From: Dehalococcoidales bacterium
GTDB lineage: Bacteria; Chloroflexota; Dehalococcoidia; Dehalococcoidales; RBG-16-60-22
DNA: 64,000 bases
Direction of reading: 5' to 3'
Assembly: GCA_034418415.1 (NCBI GenBank)
Contig: DAOULS010000080.1
Coordinates: forward strand, 8,513 to 72,512
Made by a program: the position numbers and the translations under genes. Position 1 is the stretch's first letter, and each line of letters opens with the position of its first letter. The notes under the pieces were generated by a model. The model searched no databases and was not told the DNA's origin. It worked only from the letters and a program-made list of their open reading frames with translations. Shown here piece by piece: positions 2,182 to 52,315 of the stretch.

Positions 2182-2196
2182 TAAGGAGAACAAAAA

Positions 2197-3311: not shown

Positions 3312-3363
3312 GAATGAATAATAATATCCCTAATAATATAACTACTGGGAAAAAGGAGATAAC

Positions 3364-3720: not shown

Positions 3721-3756
3721 TATCTCGGGATATTAAGGTTTTTGGGAGAAAAGCAG

Positions 3757-13462: not shown

Positions 13463-13494
13463 GTCCGGTGTAATAGACCTGGAAAGGGGAAAAT

Positions 13495-15391: not shown

Positions 15392-16337
15392 ACTGGCACT
15401 GTACTGGGCCTCCAGCTGCGGCGGTTGTGAAATCGCCCAGCTCCAGATAGGTGAAAAACTCTTGAAACTAATAGAGGTAGCCGATATCGTTTTCTGGCCG
15501 GTGGCTATCGACGTGAAGTATAAAGACGTGGAAGCCATGCCGGATAAAAGTATCGATGTCTGCCTGTTCAATGGCGCCATCCGCACCTCGGAGCAGGAGC
15601 ACATGGCAAAAATGCTGCGCGATAAGTCAAAAATAATGATTGCCTACGGCGCCTGCGCCACTTACGGAGGCATTCCGGGTCTGGGTAACCTGTATAACCG
15701 TGAGTTGATTTTCAACCGGGCTTATCTGGAAACGCAGTCCACGGATAATGAAAAGAAGGTGACTCCCCAGACCAGTATTGACGTACCGGAAGGGAAGCTC
15801 TCTCTCCCTGAATTTTTCGATACCGTGAGAAGTCTGCCGCAAACGGTGGACGTGGACTTCATCATCCCAGGCTGTCCGCCGGAAGAAAAGACCACCTGGC
15901 TTGCCCTGGAAGCGCTGATTCAAAACAAGCTGCCGCCCAAGGGCTCGATAATTTCTCATAACGTCAAAGCGGTGTGCGATGATTGCCCCCGCACCAAGAA
16001 CGAAAAGAAGGTCAAGAAATTCTACCGTCCGTTCCAGGTCGAGACGGACCCGGAGGTCTGTCTGCTGGAGCAGGGGGTACTCTGCGCCGGGGTAGCCACT
16101 GCCGGCGGCTGCGATGCCATGTGCCCGAAAGCCAACATGCCCTGCACCGGATGCTATGGTCCGGTTAAGGGAGTTACCGACCAGGGGGTGCATTTTTTGA
16201 GCGCGGTGGCGTCGATAATCGATTCCACCGACCCCGAAGAAATTAACAAGATAATCGAGGATATTGCTGACCCGGCCGGCACGTTTTACAGGTACTCGCT
16301 GCCGGAATCGCTGTTAAGGAGGGCCAAGATATCATGA
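15378..16337 (+). CDS. mvhG: [NiFe] hydrogenase small subunit, Mvh/F420-non-reducing type
   Basis: N-terminal SSCGGCE proximal-cluster motif and further Cys clusters ([12 protein letters not shown]). Overlaps the mvhD end. Confidence 0.88.
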
Positions 16338-17797
16338 AGAAGATAACGATAGACCCGATAACCCGTCTCGAAGGCCACGGTAAGATAGAGATATTTCTGG
16401 ATGACAAGGGCGGGGTCGCTAATTCATATTTCCAGGTGCCGGAATTGAGAGGCTTTGAGAAGTTCGCCGAAGGTCGCAATTCCGACGATATGCCACAGAT
16501 TACCGAGAGGATATGCGGCGTCTGCCCGGAAGCGCACCACCTGGCTTCGACCAAAACACTTGATGCCCTCTACCACGTCGACCCGCCCCCGACAGCTAGA
16601 AAACTACGTGAAATTTTCTACGATGCCTTCTATGTAACCGACCATACCACGCATTTCTACATCCTGGGCGGCCCGGACTTTGTCATGGGGCCCGATGCCC
16701 CGGTAGCCGAGCGCAATATTATCGGCGTTATCGGCAAGGTGGGGCTGGAACTGGGTGGGGCTGTTATCAAAGCCCGCATGCGGAATCACCATGTCATCGA
16801 GTTGATTGGCGGCAGGGGTGTTCACCCTGTCTTCGGTCTGCCCGGCGGCGTCAGCAAAAGCATTAATGAAGAAGAAAGAAAAGAAATCGAGGAAATTGCC
16901 AAGGAGTCGATAGAGTTCGGCAAGCTGTCGCTGAAGGTCTTCGATGATATTGTTCTCAAGAACAAAGCCTATGTAGATATGATTGTCAGCGATGCTTATA
17001 CCCACAAGACCTACTATATGGGACTTGTGGATGAGAACAACAAAGCCAACTATTATGACGGCAAGGTCAGGGTAGTTGACCCCGAAGGCAAGGAATTTGC
17101 GAAGTTTGCTCCCGCCGAGTATCTCGACCATGTCGCCGAGCATGTTGAGCCGTGGTCCTATATCAAGTTCCCCTTCCTGAAGAAGGTGGGGTGGAAGGGA
17201 TTTGTGGATGGCAAGGACAGCGGTGTCTTCCGCGTAGCGCCGCTCGCCAGGCTCAACGCCGCCGACGGTATGTCGACCCCGCTGGCACAGGAACACTACG
17301 AGAAATTCTACGAGACCCTCGGCGGTAAGCCGGTACACCATACGCTGGCGATGCACTGGGCACGCCTTATCGAGCTGCTTAATGCCGCAGAACACATGCT
17401 GGAGCTGATTCGCGACCCTGACATTACCAGTCCTGAAATACGCACTATCCCCGATAAGACTCCCGATGAAGGCGTAGGAATCGTGGAGGCGCCCCGGGGT
17501 ACGCTTATCCACCACTATATCACCGATGAAAAGGGCGTGATTCAAAAGGCAAACCTGATTGTAGCTACGGTCAACAACGGCGCCGCCGTCAATATGTCGA
17601 TAGGTAAAGCGGCCAAGGCGGTTATCCAGCCCGGTAAGGAAATCACCGAGGGCATCCTCAACCGGGTAGAGATGGCCTGGCGTCCCTACGACCTCTGCCT
17701 TGCCTGCGCTTCGCATGATTTGAATGGCCCTTCACCGGTGCCGATTTACGTGTACGACAGCCAGAAAAATCTGGTGAAGAAACTGGGTGGAGATTAA
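16334..17797 (+). CDS. mvhA: [NiFe] hydrogenase large subunit, Mvh type
   Basis: N-terminal RICGVCPEAHH and C-terminal DLCLACASH Ni-binding motifs, with a C-terminal tail after the His. ATGA overlap with mvhG. Confidence 0.92.
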   Translation: MKKITIDPITRLEGHGKIEIFLDDKGGVANSYFQVPELRGFEKFAEGRNSDDMPQITERICGVCPEAHHLASTKTLDALYHVDPPPTARKLREIFYDAFYVTDHTTHFYILGGPDFVMGPDAPVAERNIIGVIGKVGLELGGAVIKARMRNHHVIELIGGRGVHPVFGLPGGVSKSINEEERKEIEEIAKESIEFGKLSLKVFDDIVLKNKAYVDMIVSDAYTHKTYYMGLVDENNKANYYDGKVRVVDPEGKEFAKFAPAEYLDHVAEHVEPWSYIKFPFLKKVGWKGFVDGKDSGVFRVAPLARLNAADGMSTPLAQEHYEKFYETLGGKPVHHTLAMHWARLIELLNAAEHMLELIRDPDITSPEIRTIPDKTPDEGVGIVEAPRGTLIHHYITDEKGVIQKANLIVATVNNGAAVNMSIGKAAKAVIQPGKEITEGILNRVEMAWRPYDLCLACASHDLNGPSPVPIYVYDSQKNLVKKLGGD

Positions 17798-23033: not shown

Positions 23034-24944
23034 TTATGGTTTAAGTTTTTCCAGCAACTCGTTGAGTCGAACTGTAGCTACGGCAGTGACTTTATCCGCG
23101 CCACCATAGTAGAGGTGCAGGGTATTCTCAATTACAGCGGCGCCGCAGGAGAAAACGGCATTATTAACAATACCGTTTCTCTCATAATCCGTTTCAGGTT
23201 CCAGGATAGCTGTATAAGTACGTCCGATAATACGCATGGGGTCGTTCAGGTTTAATAGTGCCGCTTTAATTTCGTAATAAGCATGGTTAATGGTCACCCC
23301 ATGATAAAGCAAAAGCCAGCCGTGTGGTGTTTCAATAGGCGGTCCGGCGATGCCGATTTTCTGGTGGACACGCGGCATAGGCCTGGGTGTCATGAGAACC
23401 TGCCCGTAAATCCACCTGTTGCCGTCAAAGTCCAGGTCATCAACAAAATCCACCCAGATGCTGTCACCGAGGCGGTGTAAAATTACATATTTACCCTCTA
23501 TTTTCTTGGGAAATATCGCGGCATCTTTATCAGCTAAATCAGGGGGAGAAATCAATACCGGTTCGGCCCAGTCCCATTGTTTTGCTAAAAAATCATCCAG
23601 TTTGATGTGTGTAAGTGCTACTCTAGGAGGATTTTTGCCGCTGAAGGCGGTATAACACATGTATAGATTATCTCCTATTCGGGTTAATCGGGGGTCTTCA
23701 CAGCCGGAGTTGCCCCCCGCTACCTGCTTCATCTCGAAGTCCTTTCGCGGTACGTATACAGGGTCAGGTAGCCGTTCAGTAATCCGCGTGCCGTCGGCGC
23801 TGGAAGCATACCCCAGAACGGAGGTATTATCATTCGACATAGCCCGGTAAAGAAGGTGAACCCTGCCTTTTTCATAAATAACCCCCGGATTAAAAGTTGC
23901 CTGGGCTTCCCAAGGATTTTGGTCGTTGGGTGTGAGGATAGGATTATCAAAAAAGCGTTTGAGTTTTACAGTATTAACTTCAATTCCCAGTATTTCACGT
24001 ACCATCTGGTCTAAATTGATGGTCGCCGCGGCACAGGTGGTATCCGCCGCGCCGTAATACATATACAGCTCTTTACCCCTGACAACAGCACCGGTTGGGA
24101 AAACGATGTTCGGGACGCGTCCGTATTTTTCATATTCCTGTCGCGGTACCAGGAGAGGTTTCTTGGTACGGCCGAGCACCTCGGTGGGGTTATATAAACT
24201 CAATAATGCGGCTTCTACGCCGAAAACAGGTGGCGGATTGAAGTAGTTCTGAATATGACTGTAGAGTAAAAGCCAACCGTATTTGGTCTTAATGGGAGGC
24301 GCCCCGACCTCAATCTGGTCTTGGTCTTGCCGTTCCAGAGGAATGGTGCGTGAATTTAGCGATTCGTACCACTTGTCCCAGTAATTTTGCGACCAGATTT
24401 CAGTTTCGTCATCAAAATAGGCAACGGCGATTTTAGCTGGAGGATTGTCCGTGTTTGCCGTGAGCACGGCGGCAATTTTCCCATTGATTCTTTCGGGAAA
24501 AAGCGCCATAGCCTTGGCGTTGAAAGTAGTAACAGGATGTTTGGCTTCAATCTGTTTAAAATCACTGGTAATAGCTACCCCGACTCTAATACCATCGGCA
24601 GTGAAGGGATATTTAGATAGAGCCGTGTAAAAAATATAGTATTTACCATCCAGGCCGGTAACGCGCGGGTCCTCGCAGCCGAACTGCTCCCACTCCTCCT
24701 CCGGTCTGATAAGCTGGTAACGGTCATTAAAGTGAATACCGTCACTACTCGAAGCACAGCCAATGGACGAGACATTCCTGTGAGGTCCTCCGTTGCTTAA
24801 AGCCGATGATTCAGCGCGATACAAGAGATATATCTTACCCTTATGCTTGACAGGGCAACCGTTAAAGGTCGCCTCTCCCTCCCAGTTGTTATCAGGGTCG
24901 GGTATTAAAACTGGGTTCTCGTCAGAGCGTTTAAAGCGAATCAT
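23034..24944 (-). CDS. Tandem double GH130-family (PH1107/DUF377-type) glycoside phosphorylase/hydrolase-like protein
   Basis: Two complete five-bladed-propeller-type halves. Each has FN(G/P)..., LLYRA, GCEDPR(V/L)T and YYG(A/G)AD motifs. ATG 24944 is preferred (AAGGA 8 nt upstream); the track uses TTG 24950. Confidence 0.85.
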   Translation of the reverse strand: MIRFKRSDENPVLIPDPDNNWEGEATFNGCPVKHKGKIYLLYRAESSALSNGGPHRNVSSIGCASSSDGIHFNDRYQLIRPEEEWEQFGCEDPRVTGLDGKYYIFYTALSKYPFTADGIRVGVAITSDFKQIEAKHPVTTFNAKAMALFPERINGKIAAVLTANTDNPPAKIAVAYFDDETEIWSQNYWDKWYESLNSRTIPLERQDQDQIEVGAPPIKTKYGWLLLYSHIQNYFNPPPVFGVEAALLSLYNPTEVLGRTKKPLLVPRQEYEKYGRVPNIVFPTGAVVRGKELYMYYGAADTTCAAATINLDQMVREILGIEVNTVKLKRFFDNPILTPNDQNPWEAQATFNPGVIYEKGRVHLLYRAMSNDNTSVLGYASSADGTRITERLPDPVYVPRKDFEMKQVAGGNSGCEDPRLTRIGDNLYMCYTAFSGKNPPRVALTHIKLDDFLAKQWDWAEPVLISPPDLADKDAAIFPKKIEGKYVILHRLGDSIWVDFVDDLDFDGNRWIYGQVLMTPRPMPRVHQKIGIAGPPIETPHGWLLLYHGVTINHAYYEIKAALLNLNDPMRIIGRTYTAILEPETDYERNGIVNNAVFSCGAAVIENTLHLYYGGADKVTAVATVRLNELLEKLKP

Positions 24945-24978
24945 GCCCAAAATCCTTTCTCTTTTTTTACAGACTTTC

Positions 24979-26256
24979 CTAAATACGCAGGGTAGATTTT
25001 ACAAATTTCAGCATGTTTTTCCCGCACTGCGGACACACACCCTTGATAGCATGCCTCATGTTTTTGAAAACTACACGACGCGGGTTTTTAATAACCCGCT
25101 TTTGCCGGCATTTAAGGCAGAATCCATCTACACGTTTCATTGTCTTATCTGCATCAGAAGAAGGCGGTACGCTTATGCTCCGGCCGGTCGACTCTTTATG
25201 GTTTGCGGCGAGCTCCTCGACAAAGCCGTTTAGTTTTACCGAGGCAACGCCGACTATCTTATCAGCCCCTCCATAGTATACAAACAAGCGTTTGTTAATT
25301 ATGGCAGCCCCGCAGGGATAAACCACGCCGGCTTTCCAGCCTTCGTTTTCATACCAGGCGTTAGGCTCAAGAATAGGTTTCCTGCTTCGAGCCAGCACCT
25401 TGGTCGGGTCTTTCAGGTCCAGCAGCATCGCCCCGATTTTATAACGGTAGCCGTCATTCTTACCAACCGCCTGATAAACAAGCAGCCAGCCATATTTAGT
25501 TTTTAATGGTGGCGGTCCTGCCCCAACCTTGTGGCTGTCCCACTCTGAACTCGAGGTCCTTATAGGTATTTCATACTGTCCGGTCAGCCACTTTGTTCTG
25601 CCGTCAAAGTCCAGGTCGTCAACGAAGTCAATAAGTATATTCGGATAAATCCGATGAAAAATAACGTATTTCCCATTTATTTTTTCCGGGAAAATACAGG
25701 CATTCTTGTCCACGATGTGGGGGGGAGAGATAAGGACGGGTTTTTTCCAGTCCCACCGCCGGGCAAGAAAGTCATCAACATGAATCGAGGTCAATGCCAC
25801 GCGGGGGGGATTGCGCCCGTCATAAGCGACATAGGTCATATATACACGTTCATTAATTCTGGTCAGGCGCGGGTCTTCACAGCCCCCCATACCCCCGCCT
25901 CCCGAAACATAGATACCCGAAGTCCCTGTACCAGGCTGGTAAACCGGGTTGATTCCTTCGAATGGTTCTCTAGGGGAGTACACCGGCTTATCGAGGCGTT
26001 CCTGAATATGCATCCCATCCGTGCTGGAGGCGTAGCCTAACATGGAGACATCCGTTTCACCAATTGCCCGGTAAAGAATATGTACCTTGCCGCCTTCATA
26101 AATAGCGGCGGGATTAAAGGTGGCTTTTGTCTCCCACCAGCTATCGGGTCTGGGGGTCAAAATAGGATTACCTTTATACCTTTCCAGTACCAATGGAATG
26201 TTTTTTACTAATTGTTTCGTCATTATTCCGTGTTGTTTTGTCATTATCCCGGCCAT
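24979..26256 (-). CDS. GH130-family protein fused to a C-terminal CxxC...CxxC zinc ribbon (DUF5679-like)
   Basis: GH130 motifs (FNPAAIY, ILYRA, GGCEDPRLT, YYGGAD) and a close paralog of the second half of the 23034 gene. C-terminal tail is FCLKCRQKRVIKNPRRVVFKNMRHAIKGVCPQCGKNMLKFV. GGGGGTGG RBS. Confidence 0.85.
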   Translation of the reverse strand: MAGIMTKQHGIMTKQLVKNIPLVLERYKGNPILTPRPDSWWETKATFNPAAIYEGGKVHILYRAIGETDVSMLGYASSTDGMHIQERLDKPVYSPREPFEGINPVYQPGTGTSGIYVSGGGGMGGCEDPRLTRINERVYMTYVAYDGRNPPRVALTSIHVDDFLARRWDWKKPVLISPPHIVDKNACIFPEKINGKYVIFHRIYPNILIDFVDDLDFDGRTKWLTGQYEIPIRTSSSEWDSHKVGAGPPPLKTKYGWLLVYQAVGKNDGYRYKIGAMLLDLKDPTKVLARSRKPILEPNAWYENEGWKAGVVYPCGAAIINKRLFVYYGGADKIVGVASVKLNGFVEELAANHKESTGRSISVPPSSDADKTMKRVDGFCLKCRQKRVIKNPRRVVFKNMRHAIKGVCPQCGKNMLKFVKSTLRI

Positions 26257-42244: not shown

Positions 42245-43570
42245 ATGACGAAGACTAAATGGGTACTGATGACTTCCCTTACTATTATCATACTGTTGGC
42301 ATTACCTCTCTTGAGTGCCTGTGGCGAGGAGGAAGCAACGACGACCCCGGCAGCAACGACGCCTGCGACAACCACAGCGGCACCAGTTAACTACACGGTG
42401 TATGTTGGTGGTTGTTTTGCCCTCACTGGTGCCTATGCCGAGGATATGGCGGCGGACCTGGCCGGATACGAGGACTACATCAAATGGGTAAATGAAAACA
42501 AGAAAGTAGCTCCGTGGTATCCGGATAAGACAATCCCCGATAACGTTACCTTTGAGGTGCTATGGCGAGACGATGAGCTCAACGTAGAGAAGGTGCTTTC
42601 GATCTACGAAGAGCTTAAAGACACAGGACTTCTGGTCGAAAGAATATCAGGTTCACCGCAAGCGCTGGCACTAATGGACTTGATGAACGAGGACCGCATC
42701 GGTGCCACCAGTGCAGCTGCCGGGCCGTATCTCCTGTCGCCGCCGAAGACCATCTTCACCAACTACCCTATCTATACCGACGACTGCGCTGCCTTCGCTG
42801 ACTGGTTCATGGAAAACTGGAATGAGACCAGGGCACCGAGGTTTGCCTTCCTTACCGCCGATAATTCCATGGGCAGGTCGCTAGTGACTGATGAAATGAA
42901 GGACTATCTGGAGAGCGCCGGGTTTGAATTAGTCGGCGAACAGTATGTGCCTTTAGTTCCCACGGCGCCCCCAACCACCCAGCTGGTATGGCTGAAGGAC
43001 AATCAAGTTGATGCCTGCTTCGGCGTCATGATCAATCCCGGTTCCCAGCCAACGGTAAAGGAAATGAACAACCTGAATATGGGACCCGGTAAGGACTACG
43101 AGATAACCTTCGGCTGCGCCACGCCCAGTCACCTTCAGGTGTTCCTTCCGGCGATGGGTCAAGAGGGTAATGGTTTTGTCGTTGGCGGCGGCTATGCCTC
43201 TTGGGACGACCCTGGTGAAGGAATGACTTTCGCCAACCAGCTGTTAGCGGCATACCGTCCTGACAGTGTTGGAGCTATGCACATCATGTATGCCGGTGGC
43301 ATAGTTGAATGCATGACCCAGGTTGAGGCGTTCAGGCTGGCCTTATTAAATACCGGCAAATCTCCTGACCAGCTAACCTCGGCCGATGTCCTGGAGTACG
43401 GCTTCTACAAGATAAAGGACCTGGACACCGGAGGTATAACCGGTTCATTCCTGACCTATGGTCCGGGTGACGTTGAAGGCTGTGATGAGGTGCGTATCCA
43501 GCAGGTGCAGAATGGGAAGATTGTAGACCTGGGCGCATACCCGGTCCACCACATCTACAAGCACGAATAG
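42245..43570 (+). CDS. ABC substrate-binding lipoprotein (type-I periplasmic binding fold)
   Basis: Signal peptide with lipobox LLSAC-GEEE and a Thr/Ala/Pro linker. Position completes the Liv-type transporter. Strong GGAGGAG RBS. Confidence 0.8.
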   Translation: MTKTKWVLMTSLTIIILLALPLLSACGEEEATTTPAATTPATTTAAPVNYTVYVGGCFALTGAYAEDMAADLAGYEDYIKWVNENKKVAPWYPDKTIPDNVTFEVLWRDDELNVEKVLSIYEELKDTGLLVERISGSPQALALMDLMNEDRIGATSAAAGPYLLSPPKTIFTNYPIYTDDCAAFADWFMENWNETRAPRFAFLTADNSMGRSLVTDEMKDYLESAGFELVGEQYVPLVPTAPPTTQLVWLKDNQVDACFGVMINPGSQPTVKEMNNLNMGPGKDYEITFGCATPSHLQVFLPAMGQEGNGFVVGGGYASWDDPGEGMTFANQLLAAYRPDSVGAMHIMYAGGIVECMTQVEAFRLALLNTGKSPDQLTSADVLEYGFYKIKDLDTGGITGSFLTYGPGDVEGCDEVRIQQVQNGKIVDLGAYPVHHIYKHE

Positions 43571-43576
43571 CTAATG

Positions 43577-43610
43577 TTCCGGGAGCTCTATTCCAACAGA
43601 GCTCCCGGAA
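43577..43610 (+). terminator. Strong hairpin (13-bp perfect stem) downstream of the SBP gene
   Basis: TTCCGGGAGCTCT-attccaac-AGAGCTCCCGGAA. There is no U-tract, so this is an atypical terminator or a stabiliser. Confidence 0.5.
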
Positions 43611-43616
43611 GTTACC

Positions 43617-43781
43617 GCTATCTCTAGTGCTGGAGCTATACATGTAAGCAGAACCGTGGCTGCCAATATACCGGATATTCTGGCGGTCGGTGACTGTGCT
43701 GAGACGTGGCATCATATTCTTAAAAGCAAAATGTACATGCCTCTAGGTACCACAACTCATAAACAAGGACTGGTAGCTGGC
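43617..43781 (+). pseudogene. Remnant (about 55 codons) of a pyridine nucleotide-disulfide oxidoreductase gene
   Basis: Translation GAIHVSRTVAANIPDILAVGDCAETWHHILKSKMYMPLGTTTHKQGLVAG matches only the third FAD-binding motif region (xGDCA...PLG..A.KQG) of Nox/CoADR-type enzymes. No N- or C-terminal parts are present. Confidence 0.6.
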
Positions 43782-44229
43782 TTACCAGTCCTTACTGTGA
43801 TAGACTTGGCGAGTCCGAAGGTGGTACGGCAATATGTGGATGACCTGCGTCAGTTTATTGATAATGGCGAACTCACGGAAAGAAGAGTTGGGAGTTCTGC
43901 CTATTGTACGTTACAGTGGGTGGTGGTGTACAAAAGGTAGAACTTTTGCCCTAGCGTTTACAATTACATTCTAATAGGACTCACACCATAATTCAAACAA
44001 TCGACATTTAAATTAACAAAATGGACGATTGTTTAGCATTGCCGACTTCAGATAATGACTCGTATCCCAAGCTGCCAGGGGAACGAACGACCTCTACAGG
44101 ATCTAGCTAGCCAAAGAGAGCGCCAGAATGGTAAAAAACTGAAGCAGATGATATACTATCGTTAAGATTTCGCATGCTAGTAAAAAATTATTGGTATACT
44201 ACATTACATTAGATGAGGAAGGAGGATAA

Positions 44230-45909
44230 ATGGCAACAGTATATGGAGTAACACGTTTTGAGTTTGATGAAAAAAATGACCTCGAGAACTACACTGTGTG
44301 GCTAGCTGACGTTGTCCACGCCACGCCACCTTGGCGTCCTCTTTTCTTCATGGAGAGCTGGGGGCGGTGGGCTTATCGCTCTATACAACGAACCGCCGAG
44401 CAACTGTCCCTGCCCACAACCAAGGGTTGGGATGTGAGATACATAGATGGTTATCCTTATCCTACCGTGATTGAGACTTCGGAGCAAGAGACGAGGGAGC
44501 GCGAACCGGTATTCAGAGAGAGGATAAGACCTTATATTGAGGACTTCGATGGGCTCTGGGAAAAAAGCAAGGCGGACTTAATGAACACCTACCAAGAGCT
44601 CAGGAAAAAGTATGGATTGGGGAAATATGAGGACATCAAGAAGCTGAGTAATATTGACCTTCTGGATCTTTTTGACGATTTTATGCAGGTAGATAGGAAA
44701 CAGTGGGATGTGCACATGGGGTTTATGGTTCCGGCATTTTATCTCTTCGGTCTATTTGAACAGATGTGCCGGGAGCTTATTGGATTCGGCCATACCGATC
44801 CCCTGTTCGCCAAGCTGATGTCTGGCTTTGACAGCATGGTATTCAGGTTCAATAAAGAGGTCTGGCGACTGGCTAATCGAGCAGTTGAACTTGGGCTTAC
44901 TGAACCTTTCCAGACTATCGAAAACAATGACGCCCTGCTCGCTAAGCTGGAAAAGAGCAAGAACGGGAGGAAGTGGCTTGCGGAATACCAGGATTTCCTG
45001 GAGGTTCATGGCTGGCGAAATGAGCGTATGCTCGACTGGGCAACCCCCAACTGGTTAGAGAAGCCGAGTCTGGGGATATTTGCAATAAAGGTAGCGATGA
45101 CTACCGGGGGGGCTTATACCATTGATGAGAGGCGGGAACAGGCTGTAATGGAAAGAAAGCAGGCGGAGAGGGAAGCCTTGGCCAGGGTGCCGACCGAGCA
45201 CAGGGAGTGGTTTGAGGCCCTAATGAAAGCCGCCCAGATGGCTGGTTACTGGAGCGAAGACCACACTTATTATACCGACCTTTACTGCCACGCAATAGGG
45301 CGCTGGATAACAAGAGAAATTGGGCAGCGCTTCGCCCAGGTCGATGTTATCAATAAGCCTGAAGATGTCTATTTCCTAATCGCTGATGAGATAGAGAAAG
45401 CATTAATCCCGATGGGGAAAGTCAAACTGCACAGCTACGTTGACAGGCGGAAGAAGGAATGGGAAGAATACCTCAAGCTTACTCCTAAGCCCTACTACGG
45501 GAATATCGAGCTTGTGCAGGAAATGGTAAGAAAGGACTCTGTGATCACTGTCTCCACTTCAGCCCCAGTAGTCAGGGAAGGGTCGGATGCTGACCTCTTT
45601 GGTACTGCTTCAGCCCCCGGGGTAGTAGAAGGGATTGCTCGCGTTATAATGATTGAGGAGAAATTAGCTGAGGTTCAGCCCGGGGAGATCCTGGTAGCAC
45701 CTGGAACAAGTGCACCATGGACTCCTGTTTTTGAGATAATAAAGGGCCTCATCACCGATGGCGGCGGTGCCCTGGCTCACGCTGTGATTGTAGCCCGAGA
45801 ATACGGCATTCCTGCCGTTATCGGTTGTCTTGAGGCAACCAAGAAGATCAAGACTGGCGACAGGGTAAGGGTTGATGGTAACTTTGGGGTCGTCTATATA
45901 CTGAAGTGA
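44230..45909 (+). CDS. PEP-utilising-enzyme mobile-domain protein (phenylphosphate synthase PpsA-like / PEP synthase central part)
   Basis: C-terminal swivelling phosphohistidine domain (GTASAPGVVEGIARVI...ILVAPGTSAPWTPVF...GGALAHAVIVAREYGIPAV) after a 430-aa unassigned N-terminal region. Strong GGAGG RBS. Confidence 0.8.
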   Translation: MATVYGVTRFEFDEKNDLENYTVWLADVVHATPPWRPLFFMESWGRWAYRSIQRTAEQLSLPTTKGWDVRYIDGYPYPTVIETSEQETREREPVFRERIRPYIEDFDGLWEKSKADLMNTYQELRKKYGLGKYEDIKKLSNIDLLDLFDDFMQVDRKQWDVHMGFMVPAFYLFGLFEQMCRELIGFGHTDPLFAKLMSGFDSMVFRFNKEVWRLANRAVELGLTEPFQTIENNDALLAKLEKSKNGRKWLAEYQDFLEVHGWRNERMLDWATPNWLEKPSLGIFAIKVAMTTGGAYTIDERREQAVMERKQAEREALARVPTEHREWFEALMKAAQMAGYWSEDHTYYTDLYCHAIGRWITREIGQRFAQVDVINKPEDVYFLIADEIEKALIPMGKVKLHSYVDRRKKEWEEYLKLTPKPYYGNIELVQEMVRKDSVITVSTSAPVVREGSDADLFGTASAPGVVEGIARVIMIEEKLAEVQPGEILVAPGTSAPWTPVFEIIKGLITDGGGALAHAVIVAREYGIPAVIGCLEATKKIKTGDRVRVDGNFGVVYILK

Positions 45910-45999
45910 TTGTGACTCTCGACCTATGGAAATGCAAGCTGGGTACCATGTACAGAAAATGACTTTGGTTACCAATCCCGCTCTGGTGAGGGGTTTGAG

Positions 46000-46695
46000 G
46001 TGAGTAAGGGGCAAGTAATCCTCCAGGCCGAGCCAAAACCCATCGAAATAGATTTTTTAAAGACCGCTGTGCTCGTGGTAGACATGCAGAATGCTTTTGT
46101 ACGCCGCGGTGGATATTTGGACCAGCTTGGTATTGACATTTCCGCCACCGAAAAAATCATCGAGCCCTGCCGTAAAATTGTTAATACGGCACGTGAGAAG
46201 GGAATCAAGGTTATATATTTGCAGATGGCTTATAGTACCGACTTGTTAGATAAGGGAGGTTCAGAATCTCCGGTCTTGTACAAATCGAGGGGGTTAGCTT
46301 TTATTGAGCAATATCCCGAAATGAAGGATAGGATTTATATTCATGGCACCTGGGGAGCCGATATTATAGAGGAGTTGAAACAACAGCCGGGTGATTTAAT
46401 AATTCGGAAGCAAAAGTACGATGGATTTATCGGCACTAATTTAAATACAGTTTTAAAGACTGGCAACATAAAATACCTTATATTTATAGGAACAGCAACC
46501 AACGTCTGCGTTGAAACTACGCTCAGGCATGCTTTCTCCTTAGATTACTTTCCGATTCTCGTATCTGATGCTGTAAGTCAACTGGGTCCCGCAATAACCC
46601 AGGAAGCGACTATTTATAACGTACGAACCACTTTCGGCTGGGTGACGACCTCGGAAGAGTTTTTGAATATAATGAGAAGTGTAGACAATAATTGA
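46000..46695 (+). CDS. Isochorismatase-family cysteine hydrolase
   Basis: TAVLVVDMQNAF..., K...DGF and GTATNVCVETT (catalytic Cys context). Confidence 0.85.
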   Translation: MSKGQVILQAEPKPIEIDFLKTAVLVVDMQNAFVRRGGYLDQLGIDISATEKIIEPCRKIVNTAREKGIKVIYLQMAYSTDLLDKGGSESPVLYKSRGLAFIEQYPEMKDRIYIHGTWGADIIEELKQQPGDLIIRKQKYDGFIGTNLNTVLKTGNIKYLIFIGTATNVCVETTLRHAFSLDYFPILVSDAVSQLGPAITQEATIYNVRTTFGWVTTSEEFLNIMRSVDNN

Positions 46696-46733
46696 CTTGA
46701 TAATAGCCACCATGAGAGGGAAGGTGATAATCA

Positions 46734-47786
46734 GTGTCCAAGAGTTGGGTTTTTTGGCTTGAAGAATTAGGACGGGAGCATAAAGACCTGGTGGGTAATA
46801 AGTGCGCCAACCTGGGGGAGATGTGCAGATTAGGGTTGAGAGTCCCCCCTGGATTTGCTCTTTCCATCAAAGCTTATAAGGACTTTATGGAAATGACAGG
46901 TAACCTCCGGGAGATACAGGGATTGCTGAATAAATCGGCCAACAAAGACCTGAACTTGGACCAAATCAACGAGGCTAGCTCTCATATACGCCAGCTCGTT
47001 GAGTCAAAAGCCATGCCTGAGGAAATGGAGGAGATGATTATCTCGTGCTACAGGGAGCTGTGCCGAAGGTGCCATGTCACTAAAGTTGCTGTGTCAACAC
47101 GCTCCGCCGGGCCTGTAAGTCAGCCGGGGCAGTACGAGACTTACCTTAACATAGTCGGGGAGTCAGATGTGATAGGCGCCATCAAGAAGGTGTGGGCGAG
47201 CACGTTCAATCCCCGTTCCCTGGCCTCCCGTAGCAAAAAGGGAATGCCGCTGTCGAGCGACCCTATTGGTGTAGCTGTGTTAAAAATGGTGAACGCTCGG
47301 GCTGCAGGAATCATTTTCACCGCTGACCCCAATACCGGCGACACTAATAGGATGATAGTCGAGGCAAACTGGGGATTAGGAGAGAGCGTTGTAGCCGGTA
47401 AAATAATCCCCGACGTTTATATCTTGGATAAGAAGAGTTTAGAAATACGTGAGAGGAAACTGGGACAGAAATCAGAATACGTGGTTTGCAGAGAAGCAGG
47501 AGTAGCCGACGAGGAGACTCCGCTGGATAAAAGGTCTAATTTTTGTTTAGGTGACAGTGAGATAAGGGAAATAGGCAGAATGGGCAAGCTGTTGGAGGAG
47601 CATTTCGGTGTGCCTCAGGACGTGGAATGGGCTATAGACCAAGGTCTCTCATTCCCTGATAGCGTTATTCTGCTCCAAACTCGCTCTGCGGTTATAGCAC
47701 AGAGAAAAAAGCCTGTTGACAAGATTATAGACTTAGCGGTAAGTCGGTTTTCAAGAGGAGGATTTGGAGGAATGAAAAAGATGTAG
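46734..47786 (+). CDS. PPDK_N-type ATP-grasp nucleotide-binding protein (phenylphosphate synthase PpsB-like / PEP synthase N-terminal part)
   Basis: VGNKCANLGEM...GLRVPPGFALS, VAVSTRSAG and QDVEWAI motifs of the pyruvate,water-dikinase ATP-binding domain. It lacks His and PEP domains. Confidence 0.85.
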   Translation: MSKSWVFWLEELGREHKDLVGNKCANLGEMCRLGLRVPPGFALSIKAYKDFMEMTGNLREIQGLLNKSANKDLNLDQINEASSHIRQLVESKAMPEEMEEMIISCYRELCRRCHVTKVAVSTRSAGPVSQPGQYETYLNIVGESDVIGAIKKVWASTFNPRSLASRSKKGMPLSSDPIGVAVLKMVNARAAGIIFTADPNTGDTNRMIVEANWGLGESVVAGKIIPDVYILDKKSLEIRERKLGQKSEYVVCREAGVADEETPLDKRSNFCLGDSEIREIGRMGKLLEEHFGVPQDVEWAIDQGLSFPDSVILLQTRSAVIAQRKKPVDKIIDLAVSRFSRGGFGGMKKM

Positions 47787-47858
47787 CGGTTGGTAAAAGT
47801 AATGATACCGACGTAATTTTTACACCCGGCCAAGCAGGATAGAGGGGAGTTTAGAACA

Positions 47859-49214
47859 ATGCAGGACAAGGTGGTCAATTTTATCGATGAGTCCGTAAGA
47901 GATGGCAACCAAAGCCTCTGGGATGCTACGGGGATAACAACCCCTATGATACTTTCAATCGCACCTGTTATGAACCGGGTCGGTTTTAAATCCGTAGTTC
48001 TTACAGCCTCTACACTCATGAGGTTGCAAATTCGCGTGCACCATGAAAATCCCTGGGAGGGCATCCGGCTCGTTGCCAAAGCGCTAAAAGATACCCCTTT
48101 AACCTTCCTGACGACGGGCAGACGTTTCCTGACCTTCACCGTGACGCCTCTCTCCGTTATGTCCCTGGCGATAAAGGTGATGATTGCCAACGGGATAAGG
48201 CGCATTTGGATACTGGAAACTTCACACGAACCTGAATCCACCTACCGAACCGCAAGAATAGCTAAGGAAGCAGGGGCGGAGGAGGTTGTAGCCTCATTGA
48301 TATATTCGATTTCCCCTGTGCATACCAATGAATTCTATGTCCAAAAAGCTAGAGAGTTAGCGAAGTGCCCTGATATTGACGCCATAATGATGGAAGATGT
48401 TGGGGGCCTGCTGACGCCGGAGAGCACTCGAACTCTGATGCCGCTCATTCTACAGAATATCGGCAGTTTGCCGATGGAGCTCCACGCGCACTGTAATACC
48501 GGGCTTGCCCCCATTTGCTATCTTGAAGCTATCAAACAAGGCGTCTCGACGGTCTCGACCTGTATCTCAACTCTTGCCAACGGCAGTTCACTCCCATCCA
48601 CGGAAAACGTCTTGAGTAACATTCAGCGTCTGGGTTATTCGGCGAACTTAGACAAGGAAGCGCTGGAAGCTATGGCCACTCATTTCCGCGGCATTGCCGA
48701 AAGGGAAGGTCGACCGTGTGGCGCACCAGCTGAGTATGATGTTTATTACTACGAGCATCAGATTCCTGGCGGGATGGTAGCGACCCTTAAGCGTCAGCTT
48801 TCCGAGATGGGAGTAGAACACCGGCTGGATGAGATTTTAAAGGAAGCAATCCAGGTCCGTAAGGAGCTTGGTTACCCTATTATGGTTACTCCCTTTTCGC
48901 AGTTTGTGATGGCCCAGGCAACCAACAATGTCATCACGGGCGAGCGGTACAAAGTAGTGCCTGAAGGAATAATCCAATATGTAGCGGGGTGGTTTGGTAA
49001 GCCTCCAGCTCGTTTAGACCAGAATGTTCTGGATAAAATAAGTAGCTTACACCAGGCTAAAAATATTATAGGTAAAGAGCCTCTGGAACCATCTATAGAA
49101 GAGTTGCGTCGCAAAATTGGGGGGAGACTCCCTGATGAGGAATTCTTGCTTCGACTTGCATTGAGGGAGGAGGAAATGAAGGGCGTACGCCCGATCAAGA
49201 CTCAGTACCCGTAG
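47859..49214 (+). CDS. HMGL-like carboxyltransferase domain protein (oxaloacetate decarboxylase alpha / transcarboxylase 5S-like) without a biotinyl domain
   Basis: N-terminal FIDESVRDGNQSLW (compare D-T-x-x-RD-x-xQS), HAHCNTGLA metal-site context and the conserved C-terminal carboxyltransferase extension. It ends at 451 aa with no AMKM-type biotin motif. Confidence 0.8.
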   Translation: MQDKVVNFIDESVRDGNQSLWDATGITTPMILSIAPVMNRVGFKSVVLTASTLMRLQIRVHHENPWEGIRLVAKALKDTPLTFLTTGRRFLTFTVTPLSVMSLAIKVMIANGIRRIWILETSHEPESTYRTARIAKEAGAEEVVASLIYSISPVHTNEFYVQKARELAKCPDIDAIMMEDVGGLLTPESTRTLMPLILQNIGSLPMELHAHCNTGLAPICYLEAIKQGVSTVSTCISTLANGSSLPSTENVLSNIQRLGYSANLDKEALEAMATHFRGIAEREGRPCGAPAEYDVYYYEHQIPGGMVATLKRQLSEMGVEHRLDEILKEAIQVRKELGYPIMVTPFSQFVMAQATNNVITGERYKVVPEGIIQYVAGWFGKPPARLDQNVLDKISSLHQAKNIIGKEPLEPSIEELRRKIGGRLPDEEFLLRLALREEEMKGVRPIKTQYP

Positions 49215-49280
49215 CAACTTATTATCCGGGACGGATATATATCACAAGTATGCCATAAGGGTATTAACTTGGAGATAGTT

Positions 49281-50507
49281 ATGAAGAAGATAATCATCAT
49301 TGCTACTTTGGATAATAGAGACCAGGAGGTCAGCTACCTGAAGGAACTTATCTTGCAGAGGAGACAGCAACCTCTGATCATTGATATTGGCTTTAGAGGG
49401 GAGCCGAGGCTAGCGGCAGACATTACTGCTGCAGAAGTAGCCAAAGCCGCCGGCGCCAAAATAGAGGAGTTACGGAAACCCGAGGGAAGGAAGAGAACGA
49501 CTGAGTTAATGATTCAGGGGGCAATAGTGAAACTGGACGCTCTATGTCGGGCGGGTGAGGTATCGGGCATGATTGCCATTGGTGGCATGACCACTTTGGT
49601 CATGGCCTCCGGCATCATGAGAGAAATGCCTTACCAAATTCCCAAGCTCATCGTTTCCAGTACTGCCTCGTCGCCCGGTGTCAACCGCCTTTTCGGTGCC
49701 GCGGGAATAACCTTAATGCATTCGCTGATCGACGTGAGAGGCCTTAATAGCCTGCTTAAAACCCAATTGAGTAGAGCGGCCGCAGCTATTTGCGGTATGG
49801 TGGAAGCTGAAATTCCACCTCCTTATCCTGAGAAAGGAAAACCAAGGATAGCCATGACTACCTACGGATACATAGATAACTGCGCCCGTTATATTAGAGA
49901 GTCGTTGGGAGAAAAATATGAGCTCATCGGCTTCCATGCCACCGGAATGCCGGAAGTGGCCATGGAGAAGCTCATCGAGGAGGGCTTCTTCAGCGGTGTT
50001 ATTGACCTGGTGCCGTCCAGCATAACTAATGAGAAGTTCAGCGGCTCGCGAATCTCCTGGTCCAGGCGGCTGGAAGTAGCCGGGGAGAAAGGCCTCCCCC
50101 AGGTAGTGGCACCAGCGGGAGTAGATACTATTTCTCGAACCGGACTTACCTCCGAAGAGTTAGCCCCCGAACTCAAAATACGAAAACATTACTTTATGGA
50201 TGAACAACGGGTGACGGTGTTCTTGAATGAGGATGAATTAAGGAACATCGCCTCGGTTTACGCTGAAAAACTTAATATGGCGAAAGGCCCAACTAAGTTT
50301 CTCATCCCAAAGCGAGGGTGGCTTTCGATAGAAAAGGAAGGTGGCGAGTTTTACTCCCCTCAAGGCATTCAGTCGTTTGTTGATGGACTTAAGGAGAAGT
50401 TAAAGCCGGGGATTGAGATAAGGGAGGTGGACGCAAATATTGACGAGCCGGCTTTTGCTCGCGAGGTGGTTAATGCATTTGAGGAAGTAATGATAAAGCA
50501 GTTTTGA
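49281..50507 (+). CDS. UPF0261 / Tm-1-like ATP-binding domain protein
   Basis: MKKIIIIATLDNRDQEVSYLKE... N-terminus, with length and collinearity typical of UPF0261. ATG 49281 (GGAGAT RBS) is preferred over the track's TTG 49269. Confidence 0.7.
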   Translation: MKKIIIIATLDNRDQEVSYLKELILQRRQQPLIIDIGFRGEPRLAADITAAEVAKAAGAKIEELRKPEGRKRTTELMIQGAIVKLDALCRAGEVSGMIAIGGMTTLVMASGIMREMPYQIPKLIVSSTASSPGVNRLFGAAGITLMHSLIDVRGLNSLLKTQLSRAAAAICGMVEAEIPPPYPEKGKPRIAMTTYGYIDNCARYIRESLGEKYELIGFHATGMPEVAMEKLIEEGFFSGVIDLVPSSITNEKFSGSRISWSRRLEVAGEKGLPQVVAPAGVDTISRTGLTSEELAPELKIRKHYFMDEQRVTVFLNEDELRNIASVYAEKLNMAKGPTKFLIPKRGWLSIEKEGGEFYSPQGIQSFVDGLKEKLKPGIEIREVDANIDEPAFAREVVNAFEEVMIKQF

Positions 50508-50577
50508 ATTATATGATGCCTGTAATACCGGATAAGTTAACTATCGAAAGAGATGAAGTTCTACCTTCTGTACATTA

Positions 50578-50654
50578 TGGTGGGCGGTAGAGGACTTGAA
50601 CCACTGACCTCCGCGATGTCAACGCGGCGCTCTAACCAACTGAGCTAACCGCCC
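50578..50654 (-). tRNA. tRNA-Val (anticodon GAC), CCA encoded
   Basis: I folded it by hand. Acceptor GGGCGGT/ACCGCCC, D stem GCTC/GAGC, anticodon stem CCGCG/CGCGG with loop TTGACAT, T arm AGTGG-TTCAAGT-CCTCT (one U-U mismatch), and 3' ACCA. Confidence 0.9.
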
Positions 50655-50842
50655 TTAATACAATTCAATTCTACTAAATGCCCCCTTTTAACGTCAACCT
50701 GTATTGCCTTCAGGATGTATTTTAGTATAGGATATGTTAAAATCTATGCACGGTATTGAAACGTTATATTAATTTAGGGAGCGGCTTATATATTTATAGC
50801 TGGACTCTTCTGAAAAGCTGCGGGAAGGTACAGGTATAAAAG

Positions 50843-51931
50843 ATGGGTATCTTAAGAGGTCTTGCCACAAGTATTCTAAGCTTTATACTGTTCCTGACAC
50901 TGATGGTTTTCAGCATTGCCTTCATGCTTAAGGGCACCGTCCTGAACTATGATTTTGTTTCTGACCAGGTGGATAAGGTGCCGATAACCGATATCGCCCG
51001 CGATTTAGGCGATGAGCTAATCACCTCACAATTAACTCAAGATATGCCTTTTGCAAAAGACGTAGCATTGAATGTCCTGGAACAAAAGGAACCGTGGATT
51101 AAAGATACATTAAAAGAAGCCATGGACAGCGGTTATGACTATATACTGGGTGAGACGGATACGCTGTACATCGTGCTTCCGTTATCCGAACTGAAGGCGG
51201 ACCTCCAGAGTACGCTGTGGGATGAAGCCAGGTCTTATCTCCGTCAGGAGCTTGTCGGGAAGTCCGAAGCAGAAATATCAGTATACCTCCAGGATATAGT
51301 GCGGCAGATTCCCACCGACTTGATGCCCCCGGAGCTGGCCGCTTTGCCTCAAAACGTGCGTAATCTTGCCGTCGAACAGTATTTGAGAGATTTTGCAGGG
51401 CTGAATTCCGTTGTCGGCCTGCCGCCGGAAGTAACCGCCTCGGTCGAGGATAGCGCCAGAGAGTATTTCGACGAATTTCTTGAGGACTTTATCGACGAAA
51501 TCCCGAATACCTACACCATTGACGAGAGTACTCTCGGGGCCGATACCATGAATGCGATATCTAACGCCAAGACGGCGATTGGGTATTTCCAGACCTACTA
51601 TCCCTGGATGATTGTCCTGATGATTGTCCTGGCGGCCCTGATTTTCGTGATTAACATGAACATAAGAGCCACCGCCAGAGCCCTGGGGACCAACCTGTGT
51701 ATTTACGGCGGTCTTAGCTTGATAGGAATCATCGTTGTTAAGGCTGTTTCACCGTTCCACTATATTACGGATGCCTTTGATGTCCCGTCTACGCTAACTA
51801 CCTGGGCGGAGGGTGTGGCTAACGACATAACCTCGGTAGGCCTGCCGTTATCTATAGGTCTGCTGGTGGCGGGTGTGGTTTTGCTGGTGGTGTCCTTTGT
51901 TATTAAACCCAAAGCCGCCCCGGAGGCGTGA
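50843..51931 (+). CDS. Hypothetical membrane protein (N-terminal TM, large extracytoplasmic acidic domain, C-terminal TM bundle)
   Basis: Long ORF with TM segments at both ends. No family recognised. Confidence 0.6.
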   Translation: MGILRGLATSILSFILFLTLMVFSIAFMLKGTVLNYDFVSDQVDKVPITDIARDLGDELITSQLTQDMPFAKDVALNVLEQKEPWIKDTLKEAMDSGYDYILGETDTLYIVLPLSELKADLQSTLWDEARSYLRQELVGKSEAEISVYLQDIVRQIPTDLMPPELAALPQNVRNLAVEQYLRDFAGLNSVVGLPPEVTASVEDSAREYFDEFLEDFIDEIPNTYTIDESTLGADTMNAISNAKTAIGYFQTYYPWMIVLMIVLAALIFVINMNIRATARALGTNLCIYGGLSLIGIIVVKAVSPFHYITDAFDVPSTLTTWAEGVANDITSVGLPLSIGLLVAGVVLLVVSFVIKPKAAPEA

Positions 51932-51934
51932 TAA

Positions 51935-52315
51935 TTGAAATATAAAATACCCGTATTTATCTTGATTTTGTTGCTGCTAGCGGTCTCCGGCTGTTCATTC
52001 CTGCAGGACACGGAAGGCCCGCCGAGGAAGGCGGAACTGGCTATTATCAAGCAGGAACTGACCAAGGACGAGGAAGGCAATGTAATCTATCTTGTGTCTG
52101 TTAAAAATATCAGTCAGGTGACCGTTGAGCTGGCCGAGGTCAAGGTAAGCTTCTACGACTCTCAAGATAATTTTATCGGCAGCACAACGGACAGCGTCCT
52201 GAACTTGAAACCGGACGATACCTGGGACTTTTACATACAATGCCAGGGGGACTGTCAGGACATTCAGCGCTGTGATGTTGAAGTAATGGTGGGGACAAGT
52301 AGCGGGGGATTGTAA
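51935..52315 (+). CDS. Small lipoprotein (FxLYD/DUF3426-like beta-sandwich guess)
   Basis: Signal peptide with lipobox LLAVSG-C. Starts 4 nt after the preceding gene's stop. Confidence 0.5.
   Translation: MKYKIPVFILILLLLAVSGCSFLQDTEGPPRKAELAIIKQELTKDEEGNVIYLVSVKNISQVTVELAEVKVSFYDSQDNFIGSTTDSVLNLKPDDTWDFYIQCQGDCQDIQRCDVEVMVGTSSGGL

Follow-up and report, generated by a model that had tools for sequence, protein, structure and literature searches.

Five co-directional genes in a 64-kb stretch of DNA from a Dehalococcoidales bacterium (contig DAOULS010000080.1, positions 8,513 to 72,512; the whole stretch is referred to here as the window) encode the two subunits of a dikinase (proteins A and C), a RutB-like cysteine amidohydrolase (B), a carboxyltransferase (D) and a kinase of the UPF0261 family (E). 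We put at about 0.5 the probability that this module descends from, and works like, the phosphorylation-dependent ketone carboxylation systems Acv, Hpe and Xcc and their MarK variant. Four of the five families are building blocks of these systems, and the type of pathway is not categorically new. What is new is the deep clade to which the dikinase belongs, the remodelled pocket of the MarK-family kinase, the presence of both kinase types together, the RutB-like amidohydrolase encoded between the dikinase genes, and the lack of a phosphatase and usually of biotin carboxylase (BC) and biotin carboxyl carrier protein (BCCP). The carriers are uncultured and probably anaerobic lineages. An earlier note on this DNA, made from the sequence alone, had not recognized the combination as a described pathway. 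Indeed, the exact five-gene combination was not found in the searchable literature, which also yielded nothing relevant on an anaerobic ATP-dependent uracil pathway. It should be emphasized, however, that the Acv, Hpe and Xcc pathways, MarK and the 43% identity of D to an Acv-type carboxyltransferase are precedents.

Composition of the module

The five open reading frames (ORFs) lie on the + strand, separated by gaps of 38-90 bp, and their positions and Pfam domains agree with those that the earlier note had described. The window sequence is identical on contig CAZSRM010000006.1 of the metagenome-assembled genome (MAG) GCA_964609685.1, and its closest named relatives are Dehalococcoidia MAGs. 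A (44230..45909, 559 aa), the dikinase alpha subunit, and C (46734..47786, 350 aa), the beta subunit, represent a pyruvate, water-dikinase architecture that, as had been proposed, is split into an ATP-grasp protein and a protein bearing the substrate domain and the swivelling histidine. The sole domain of C is the ATP-grasp PF01326 (PPDK_N, residues 18-327), while A ends in the swivelling domain PF00391 (residues 483-552). The GGALAHAVIVAREYGIP motif is present in A (GGALAH517AVIVAREYGIP, of the form GGxxxH(A)xI/V, at most ~50 residues from the C-terminus), and its His517 is invariant across 47 homologues. Some 430 residues at the N-terminus of A had been described as unassigned, but this region is assignable: precomputed annotation places PF27448 (Rph_4th) here, residues 239-558 align with residues 558-866 of rifampin phosphotransferase (RPH), and PRK08296.1-5 (NCBIfam) covers A over its full length, at 262 bits and thus under the cutoff of 578. 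The AlphaFold (AF2) model of A (pLDDT 78, pTM 0.81) superposes on RPH over ~580 columns (Foldseek E = 2e-18, TM 0.67) with no competing fold, at a sequence identity of 18-20%. A therefore consists of an RPH-type substrate-binding domain (~residues 1-440) followed by the swivelling His domain, with C as the ATP-grasp partner. The published architecture of HpeH/HpeI is the same split RPH-like arrangement, and HpeH alone has phosphotransfer activity (PMC12167813).

The two halves were compared with reference loci comprising Azoarcus ppsABC-ppcBDAG (L036), Rhodococcus cre (L037/L038), a Rhizobium Acv-type locus (L039), a Thermomicrobium locus resembling the 3-hydroxypyridine (3hpd) cluster (L035) and Escherichia coli ppsA (L041). 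The identity of A to PpsA, CreH and AcvA is 26-28%, against 43-46% among these three. That of C is 31-35% to PpsB, CreI and AcvB and 30-32% to the phosphoenolpyruvate (PEP) synthase N-domain, and the PpsAB, CreHI and AcvAB references share 39-47% identity with one another. PEP synthase N-domains are the top NCBIfam and PDB matches of C (269 and 226 bits), which also matches the stand-alone 387-aa chain 9GOJ (187 bits). The family scores, however, lie far below the respective cutoffs: the dikinase halves reach 135 and 196 bits with the RPH models (cutoff 999) and 87 and 262 bits with TIGR01418 (cutoff 740), and all PRK08296 models score under cutoff. Pfam detected no PEP/pyruvate-binding TIM barrel (PF02896) in A, C or the rest of the module, and the C clade is monophyletic in 100 of 100 neighbour-joining bootstraps, with the N-domain of E. 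coli PpsA falling outside. The halves thus do not group with ordinary PEP synthase or RPH, a grouping that would have refuted the earlier note, and its description of the pair as phenylphosphate-synthase-type is apt for the PpsAB-like split but not in the narrow sense, given the low identities and the lack of PpsC. On these comparisons A and C constitute a third, deep lineage of two-component dikinases, distinct from PEP synthase, RPH and the close kin of PpsAB, with sequences that lie outside the clade of characterized phenolic dikinases. The lineage is well populated, as at least 120 clusters (90% identity level) share at least 59% identity with A, and likewise at least 120 for E.

A sister arrangement, in which A and C are followed by a HAD gene and a gene for a 233-aa protein lacking a Pfam match, occurs in four loci (L008, L020, L024 and L030, for example L030 10001-14190). 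In these loci A is 68-72% identical to its counterpart in the window, D and E are absent and the operon is devoid of B, although in L020 a B-like gene lies further upstream, several genes away and on the other strand. The existence of these sister loci indicates that the same dikinase clade has been plugged into at least three downstream gene sets. A distant dikinase pair is also present on the Thermomicrobium roseum megaplasmid (L035; NC_011961.1, 56118-73327), where it lies amid subunits of a Mo-hydroxylase of the xanthine dehydrogenase family, with a Tm-1-like/PEP-hydrolase pair, a GntR regulator and a Liv-type ABC transporter nearby. The layout resembles the 3hpd cluster, and this cultured member of the Chloroflexota would be a tractable model for the co-function of dikinase and UPF0261 proteins.

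D (47859..49214, 451 aa) consists of HMGL-like and PYC_OADA domains and has no biotinyl domain. Its top NCBIfam matches are PycB/OadA models, with scores under their cutoffs. Because D scores 395 bits against the Acv-type carboxyltransferase of L039 (43% identity; 49% for the L028 orthologue of D) and 204 bits against 5KS8, its best PycB match in the PDB, we place it in the aryl-ketone carboxylase lineage of AcvE, HpeB and XccA. The motifs D..RDGNQS, HxH and VTPFSQ, the last with the catalytic Thr, are kept. In the metal site the Asp and HxH are conserved, but the carbamylated metal-bridging Lys (KD motif) is replaced by Glu (ED) at about residue 179. The same replacement is found in a paralogous lineage, D' (L006/L028 8538-9956; L023 730-2073), whereas most orthologues retain the Lys, and the change arose independently in window D and in D'. 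The Glu could serve as an intrinsic stand-in for the carbamate ligand.

E (49281..50507; PF06792 and PF23189) is a full-length member of the UPF0261 (Tm-1-like/MarK) family; its longest ORF starts at 49269 (TTG), while the public gene call is at 49281 (ATG, 408 aa). MarK (Saro_1862), the first member of UPF0261 for which an activity has been demonstrated, carries out the ADP-forming phosphorylation of acetovanillone and other aromatics and is encoded in the marK-acvCDEF operon of Novosphingobium aromaticivorans (PMC12624787). E aligns from end to end with the MarK structure 9MPY (142 bits, ~30% identity). The basic residue of the ATP site, Arg17 in E, corresponds to K16 of MarK E16K and K20 of Tm-1 and is K or R throughout the clade, and the residues of MarK that bind the acceptor hydroxyl, G195 and H219, are retained. 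The acetovanillone pocket, by contrast, has been remodelled at MarK positions 196 (T to Y/W), 283 (F to T/V), 285 (I to S), 304 (H to M/I) and 348 (H to I/V/A), and these replacements are consistent across the E clade. Because both the E pocket and the A/C clade are so different, acetovanillone or 4-hydroxyacetophenone itself is an unlikely substrate. Elsewhere, UPF0261 genes are found paired with another enolate-type TIM barrel, the PF09370 'PEP hydrolase', as in L035.

B (46000..46695, 231 aa; PF00857) is a member of the isochorismatase superfamily whose gene sits between those of the two dikinase subunits. It aligns without gaps over its full length with E. coli RutB (8BKD) at ~45% identity, keeps the Asp-Lys-Cys triad (D28, K137 and C170, corresponding to D24, K133 and C166 of RutB), and its closest relatives among cultured organisms are, without exception, true RutB proteins (41-45% identity). 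The score against the RutB model TIGR03614, however, is 238.7 bits, below the cutoff of 377.95. Among the RutB positions compared through the alignment, Y29, N72, W74, E80 and Q105 are changed in B, while the presumed pocket residues Y35, S92, W114 and Y136 are kept. No other rut operon genes (rutA, rutC-G) are present among the annotated ORFs of the window. RutB is reported to have lactamase activity as well (PMC12553813).

Conservation and partner genes

Gene neighbourhoods were surveyed around A (26 genome loci), around diverged homologues of A, around E homologues picked independently of A and around a biotin carboxylase. All five families occur within 10 kb of one another in eight further loci (L006/L028, L007, L018, L021, L023, L044 and L046), representing at least seven other independent lineages and carried by Dehalococcoidia, Desulfobacterota-like organisms and unassigned MAGs or contigs. 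Five gene orders are represented (ABCDE, ABCED, DE|ABC, CBA|ED and C-A-BCCP-BC-E-D-B). A and C are almost always paired, with B between them in 10 loci. D is adjacent or nearly adjacent to E in all 12 loci that bear it, including the stand-alone E-D pairs L042 and L043, and E without D stands beside A in Thermoleophilia/Actinomycetota. The association of the five genes is thus selected, far beyond chance, and the co-occurrence predicted by the earlier note is borne out, in shuffled order.

The genes flanking the module vary from locus to locus, and tRNA genes of differing identity adjoin it in the window and in L006/L028, L007, L018, L021 and L023, with an integrase or integrase fragment near it in L018 and L006/L028. 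The module therefore appears to be a portable, tRNA-flanked, horizontally mobile unit, which is consistent with its presence at ~75% identity in MAGs labelled Deltaproteobacteria/Desulfobacteraceae. In the window the downstream edge is marked by tRNA-Val(GAC) (50578..50654, - strand; ARAGORN, Rfam tRNA 68.5 bits), 70 bp 3' of E. Candidates for additional conserved flanking genes (Macro, metallophosphoesterase, rhomboid, VTC and Na/H exchanger) were rejected as lineage-specific housekeeping synteny. In three other loci E and D are followed by a short-chain dehydrogenase/reductase (SDR) and a DUF169 (PF02596) gene (L007 16214-17775, L027 872-2439 and L044 11630-13204); this unit is not present in the window, where tRNA-Val takes its place after E.

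A larger arrangement is found in Thermoleophilia/Actinomycetota, where a ~17-kb cluster (L033/L034 1064-21489; also L031/L032) contains two A paralogues, C and E together with two BKACE genes, a glycyl-radical enzyme, an SDR, a PanB-like gene, a ferredoxin with an FAD flavoprotein and a MerR/TetR regulator. L031/L032 additionally encode a Liv-type substrate-binding protein (SBP), an ADP-forming acyl-CoA synthetase and a PfkB kinase, with a dihydroorotase-like gene downstream, and in L033/L034 the cluster is flanked by pyrR-pyrB on one side and by the gene of an amidohydrolase (Amidohydro_1) on the other. Two phyla have pyrR/pyrB and related genes next to the cluster. In L006/L028, however, tRNA-Trp and an integrase fragment separate the pyr operon from the module, and a pyrimidine link based on this adjacency was down-weighted for the Dehalococcoidia; the actinobacterial loci are not covered by this argument.

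The partner genes that an Acv-type carboxyltransferase would be expected to work with are distributed unevenly. Pfam searches of every large ORF and a six-frame scan for biotinyl motifs around the cluster found no BC or BCCP in the 64-kb window, and neither was found in 10 of the 12 D-bearing loci, including the stand-alone E-D pairs. ORFs of ~150 aa beside D in L023 and L018 were considered as BCCP candidates and rejected, as they are VOC/glyoxalase, Vsr endonuclease and DNA methyltransferase genes. Two related loci, however, do hold both partners in the cluster: L046 has the order C-A-BCCP (76 aa)-BC (455 aa)-E-D-isochorismatase-SSF-SDR, with A, C, D and E 54-64% identical to the window proteins, and L047 independently has C-A-BCCP-BC-thiolase-DUF35. 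The 'BCCP-less' carboxyltransferase of the earlier note is thus an accurate description of the window but not of its relatives. The gene order of L046 parallels acvA-acvB-acvC-acvD-acvE-acvF, with the addition of E and with an isochorismatase-family hydrolase, which is non-orthologous to B (33% identity), in place of the HAD phosphatase. It follows from L046 and L047 that, in some organisms at least, the D lineage operates together with a true biotin carboxylase system, and that the five-gene set of the window is a reduced form.

tblastn with two HAD queries detected no HAD phosphatase gene in loci containing B, D or E; HAD genes occur only in the A-C-HAD loci, which have none of the three. 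PpsC and a UbiD-type PpcABCD are absent from the window and all related loci and present in the reference L036. Accessory genes include the SDR after E-D (L007, L027 and L044), thiolase with SDR (L021), thiolase with DUF35 (L047), and BKACE, SDR and ADP-forming acyl-CoA synthetase in the actinobacterial loci. By analogy with Xcc, Acv and Hpe, these genes would fit a scheme in which an alcohol is converted to a ketone and then to a beta-keto acid that is cleaved.

Known systems, proposed pathway and alternatives

The hydroxyphenylethanone pathways Acv (Sphingobium SYK-6), Hpe (Rhodococcus rhodochrous GD02) and Xcc (Aromatoleum aromaticum EbN1) consist of a dikinase, BCCP, BC, a carboxyltransferase and a HAD phosphatase, and share a core of dikinase and PycB-like carboxyltransferase (PMC9618137; bioRxiv 10.1101/2022.04.28.489975). 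The module resembles them in its split RPH-like dikinase, in a PycB-like carboxyltransferase devoid of a biotinyl domain, in the acvABCDEF-like order of L046 and in the SDR, thiolase and CoA-ligase-type accessory genes of related loci. It differs in that the dikinase forms a separate deep clade, BC and BCCP are not encoded in the window and most loci, the HAD phosphatase is absent, a UPF0261 kinase and a RutB-like amidohydrolase are added, and the carriers are uncultured and likely anaerobic. Similarly, E shares with MarK its full-length UPF0261 architecture, the ATP-site basic residue, Gly195/His219 and a gene position beside an AcvE-type carboxyltransferase; in contrast with marK-acvCDEF, however, E co-occurs with a dikinase rather than replacing one, the operon has no BCCP, BC or HAD gene and the pocket is remodelled.

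Other systems share less with the module. PpsABC (Thauera/Azoarcus) and the phenylphosphoamidate synthase of Desulfatiglans anilini are likewise two-gene alpha/beta dikinases with a presumed His-phosphoryl relay and an anaerobic lifestyle, but A and C are only 28% and 35% identical to Azoarcus PpsA and PpsB, there is no PpsC (CBS) subunit and the carboxylase is a DRE-TIM carboxyltransferase, not a UbiD/UbiX-type enzyme such as phenylphosphate carboxylase. Although B shares the triad and much of the sequence of E. coli RutB, it scores below the TIGR03614 cutoff, is not accompanied in the window by rutA or rutC-G and is encoded inside a dikinase operon. The fold of A and the ATP-grasp of C together match the three domains of RPH (5FBS/5HV1), yet they are separate polypeptides with low identity and scores far under the cutoffs, and their context is catabolic rather than one of antibiotic resistance.

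In the pathway that we infer for the module, including its substrate class, order of steps and direction of carboxylation, A and C would act as an AMP-forming dikinase, in which C binds ATP and His517 of A is pyrophosphorylated and then phosphorylated. The phosphate of His517 would pass to a phenolic, heteroaryl or enolic hydroxyl of a small substrate held in the RPH-type domain of A. E, as an ADP-forming kinase of the MarK type, may phosphorylate the same or a second hydroxyl and so feed D with phosphorylated substrate; such a linkage between D and E is suggested because HpeCBA carboxylates phosphorylated substrates only (PMC9618137). D would then move CO2 from carboxy-biotin onto the carbon adjoining a carbonyl, producing a beta-keto acid, with BC and BCCP presumably supplied in trans from elsewhere in the genome. 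B may cleave a bond of the amide, carbamoyl or lactam type, either in the substrate or in the product, and this reaction is tentatively tied to the dikinase step because the gene of B lies between those of A and C. It might be speculated that A, like HpeH, moves phosphate from the product onto fresh substrate, a transfer that would stand in for a phosphatase.

Several observations weigh against this phosphorylation-dependent ketone carboxylation. All the specificity residues of MarK are replaced in E, window D has Glu at the carbamyl-lysine position, and A and C are only 26-35% identical to characterized phenolic dikinases. BC and BCCP were not found in the window nor in 10 of the 12 D-bearing loci, and no HAD phosphatase accompanies B, D or E, though dephosphorylation is essential in Acv and Hpe. 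The cysteine amidohydrolase, moreover, has no role in known Acv/Hpe-type pathways, and all carriers are uncultured.

It could be argued that the module serves the catabolism of N-heterocyclic or ureido compounds of the pyrimidine, hydroxypyridine or lactam type, with the kinases phosphorylating a lactim or ring hydroxyl, B hydrolysing a ureido, enamide or lactam bond in the manner of RutB on ureidoacrylate, and D carboxylating or decarboxylating a beta-oxo acid fragment, for example one resembling malonate semialdehyde. The intact triad of B, its ~45% identity to RutB and the true RutB identity of its closest cultured relatives point in this direction, as does the lactamase activity reported for RutB (PMC12553813). 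Genetic evidence shows that 3-hydroxypyridine catabolism requires two-component dikinases (bioRxiv 10.1101/2020.01.08.898148), the Thermomicrobium locus joins a dikinase pair to a Mo-hydroxylase, a Tm-1-like protein and a Liv ABC transporter, Liv-type importers recur beside the clade, and pyrR/pyrB and related genes lie beside the cluster in two phyla. The pyr adjacency in Dehalococcoidia, however, looks like an accident of the insertion site, B falls under the RutB cutoff with several RutB positions changed, and the isochorismatase-family protein of L046 is not its orthologue. As D clearly belongs to the aryl-ketone carboxyltransferase lineage, and the accessory SDR, thiolase/DUF35 and BKACE genes suggest beta-keto acid chemistry over ring hydrolysis, we regard this explanation as unlikely. 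A more radical proposal is that E and D form a biotin-independent, ATP-driven carboxylase reminiscent of PEP carboxylase, in which E generates an enol or aryl phosphate and D, through its DRE-TIM barrel, couples loss of the phosphate to addition of CO2; BC, BCCP and a phosphatase would therefore be unneeded. This would be in accord with their scarcity or absence, with the constant company of D and E (alone in L042 and L043), with the Glu in window D and the D' paralogues, and with the pairing of UPF0261 proteins with the PF09370 TIM barrel elsewhere. Against it, D shares the catalytic Thr and VTPFSQ motif with the biotin-dependent AcvE, L046 has BC and BCCP immediately beside E-D, MarK phosphorylates ketone-free phenolics and acts upstream of a genuine biotin enzyme (PMC12624787), and there is no biochemical precedent, making the proposal improbable. 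There is similarly only a slim chance that this biotin-independent system of E and D exists in an extended form, in which phosphate might be recycled by HpeH-like phosphotransfer through A, and B widens the range to amide or N-heterocyclic substrates in energy-limited anaerobes.

That the cluster is a chance assembly of central-metabolism genes (a split PEP synthase and a PycB/OadA alpha subunit), or encodes an antibiotic phosphotransferase, is effectively refuted. The PEP synthase matches of C, the PycB/OadA matches of D and the alignment of A to RPH might have suggested as much; in fact PF02896 occurs nowhere in the module, the scores are far under the family cutoffs, the C clade excludes E. 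coli PpsA and the similarity of D to AcvE is about double that to PycB. A, moreover, has only 18-20% identity to RPH and is split from its own ATP-grasp, and the five genes have been kept together across phyla in shuffled orders.

Descriptions of phosphorylation-dependent aromatic-ketone carboxylation all date, to our knowledge, from 2022-2025 and are confined to isolates, aerobic or denitrifying, that were investigated with lignin valorisation in mind. The module extends this picture with a widespread, deeply divergent version carried by uncultured lineages of Dehalococcoidia, Desulfobacterota-like bacteria and actinobacteria. It offers concrete candidates for new substrate specificities in two poorly explored kinase families, and a natural test of an AcvE-type carboxyltransferase operating without a dedicated BC/BCCP or phosphatase. 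It also provides the first hint of a RutB-like amidohydrolase coupled to a small-molecule dikinase. If the substrate were a common sedimentary aromatic or N-heterocycle, the module would help to explain the carbon sources of subsurface Dehalococcoidia.

Surroundings of the module in the window

Upstream of the module lie, in order, a LuxR gene (- strand), two ABC ATPase genes, a gene for an AMP-binding protein, two permease genes and an SBP gene. Right after the stop codon of the latter is a hairpin (43577..43610, + strand) with a perfect 13-bp stem and an 8-nt loop (-25.5 kcal/mol, z = -5.56; none of 200 shuffles folds as well), which was not flagged by a terminator scan because it has no T-run. 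The hairpin is probably the end of the ABC-transporter operon, dividing it from the module, and is followed by a 660-bp AT-rich spacer and then a strong ribosome-binding site 5' of A. The earlier note had placed the cluster directly downstream of a LuxR-regulated ABC importer with its own CoA ligase. The block is indeed present, but 'LuxR-regulated' and 'directly downstream' overstate the relationship in view of the hairpin and spacer, and the context is specific to this genome: no orthologues of the LuxR/ABC/AMP-binding/SBP block are found in the other five-gene loci, among which Liv-type transporter genes adjoin A in L023 and L044 only and have at most a distant relationship to those of the window. 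A functional link between transporter and module is nevertheless possible, since Liv-type importers recur near the clade. The window SBP was rejected as a clue to the ligand, its sole PDB match being marginal (E = 1.5e-4) and uninformative. A 94-aa ORF in the spacer (43656-43940) was likewise rejected as a gene remnant, as it has no Pfam match and only E = 0.16 against a flavoprotein of the window.

Searches for riboswitches or leader RNAs with Rfam (E <= 1 over 43400-51000, and at the gathering threshold in seven related loci) returned tRNAs only, and promoter and terminator scans inside the module gave sites no more frequent than in shuffled sequence. Beyond tRNA-Val, ORFs at 50843-52315 encode a 362-aa probable membrane protein, with only a weak DUF2062 match, and a 126-aa protein; no family could be assigned with confidence to either, counterparts are lacking in the related loci, and they are followed by Lit (lipoprotein intramolecular transacylase) and DnaE.

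The remainder of the window contains several gene groups of separate interest. A complete chemotaxis operon (118-6703) encodes CheA (687 aa), CheC, CheD, CheB, CheR and an HD-domain protein (PF13487 HD_5), with a separate response regulator at 9452-9934; as Dehalococcoidia are usually regarded as non-motile, its presence in a Dehalococcoidia-like MAG is notable. Between 7437 and 9358 an alpha-acetolactate decarboxylase gene (- strand) adjoins that of a SAM hydroxide adenosyltransferase of the fluorinase/chlorinase family (PF01887/PF20257). An Hdr/Mvh-like electron-bifurcation block (10118-17797) begins with a 1114-aa HdrA-like fusion that holds dihydropyrimidine-dehydrogenase domain II (Fer4_20) and C-terminal ferredoxin domains, and continues with HdrC-like, HdrB-like (CCG) and MvhD (FlpD) genes and the small and large subunits of a NiFe hydrogenase. 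Finally, two tandem genes of the GH130 (beta-1,4-mannooligosaccharide phosphorylase) family are located at 23034-26256 (- strand), the first encoding a 638-aa protein with a ~340-aa N-terminal extension lacking a Pfam match and the second a protein with a C-terminal DUF5679.

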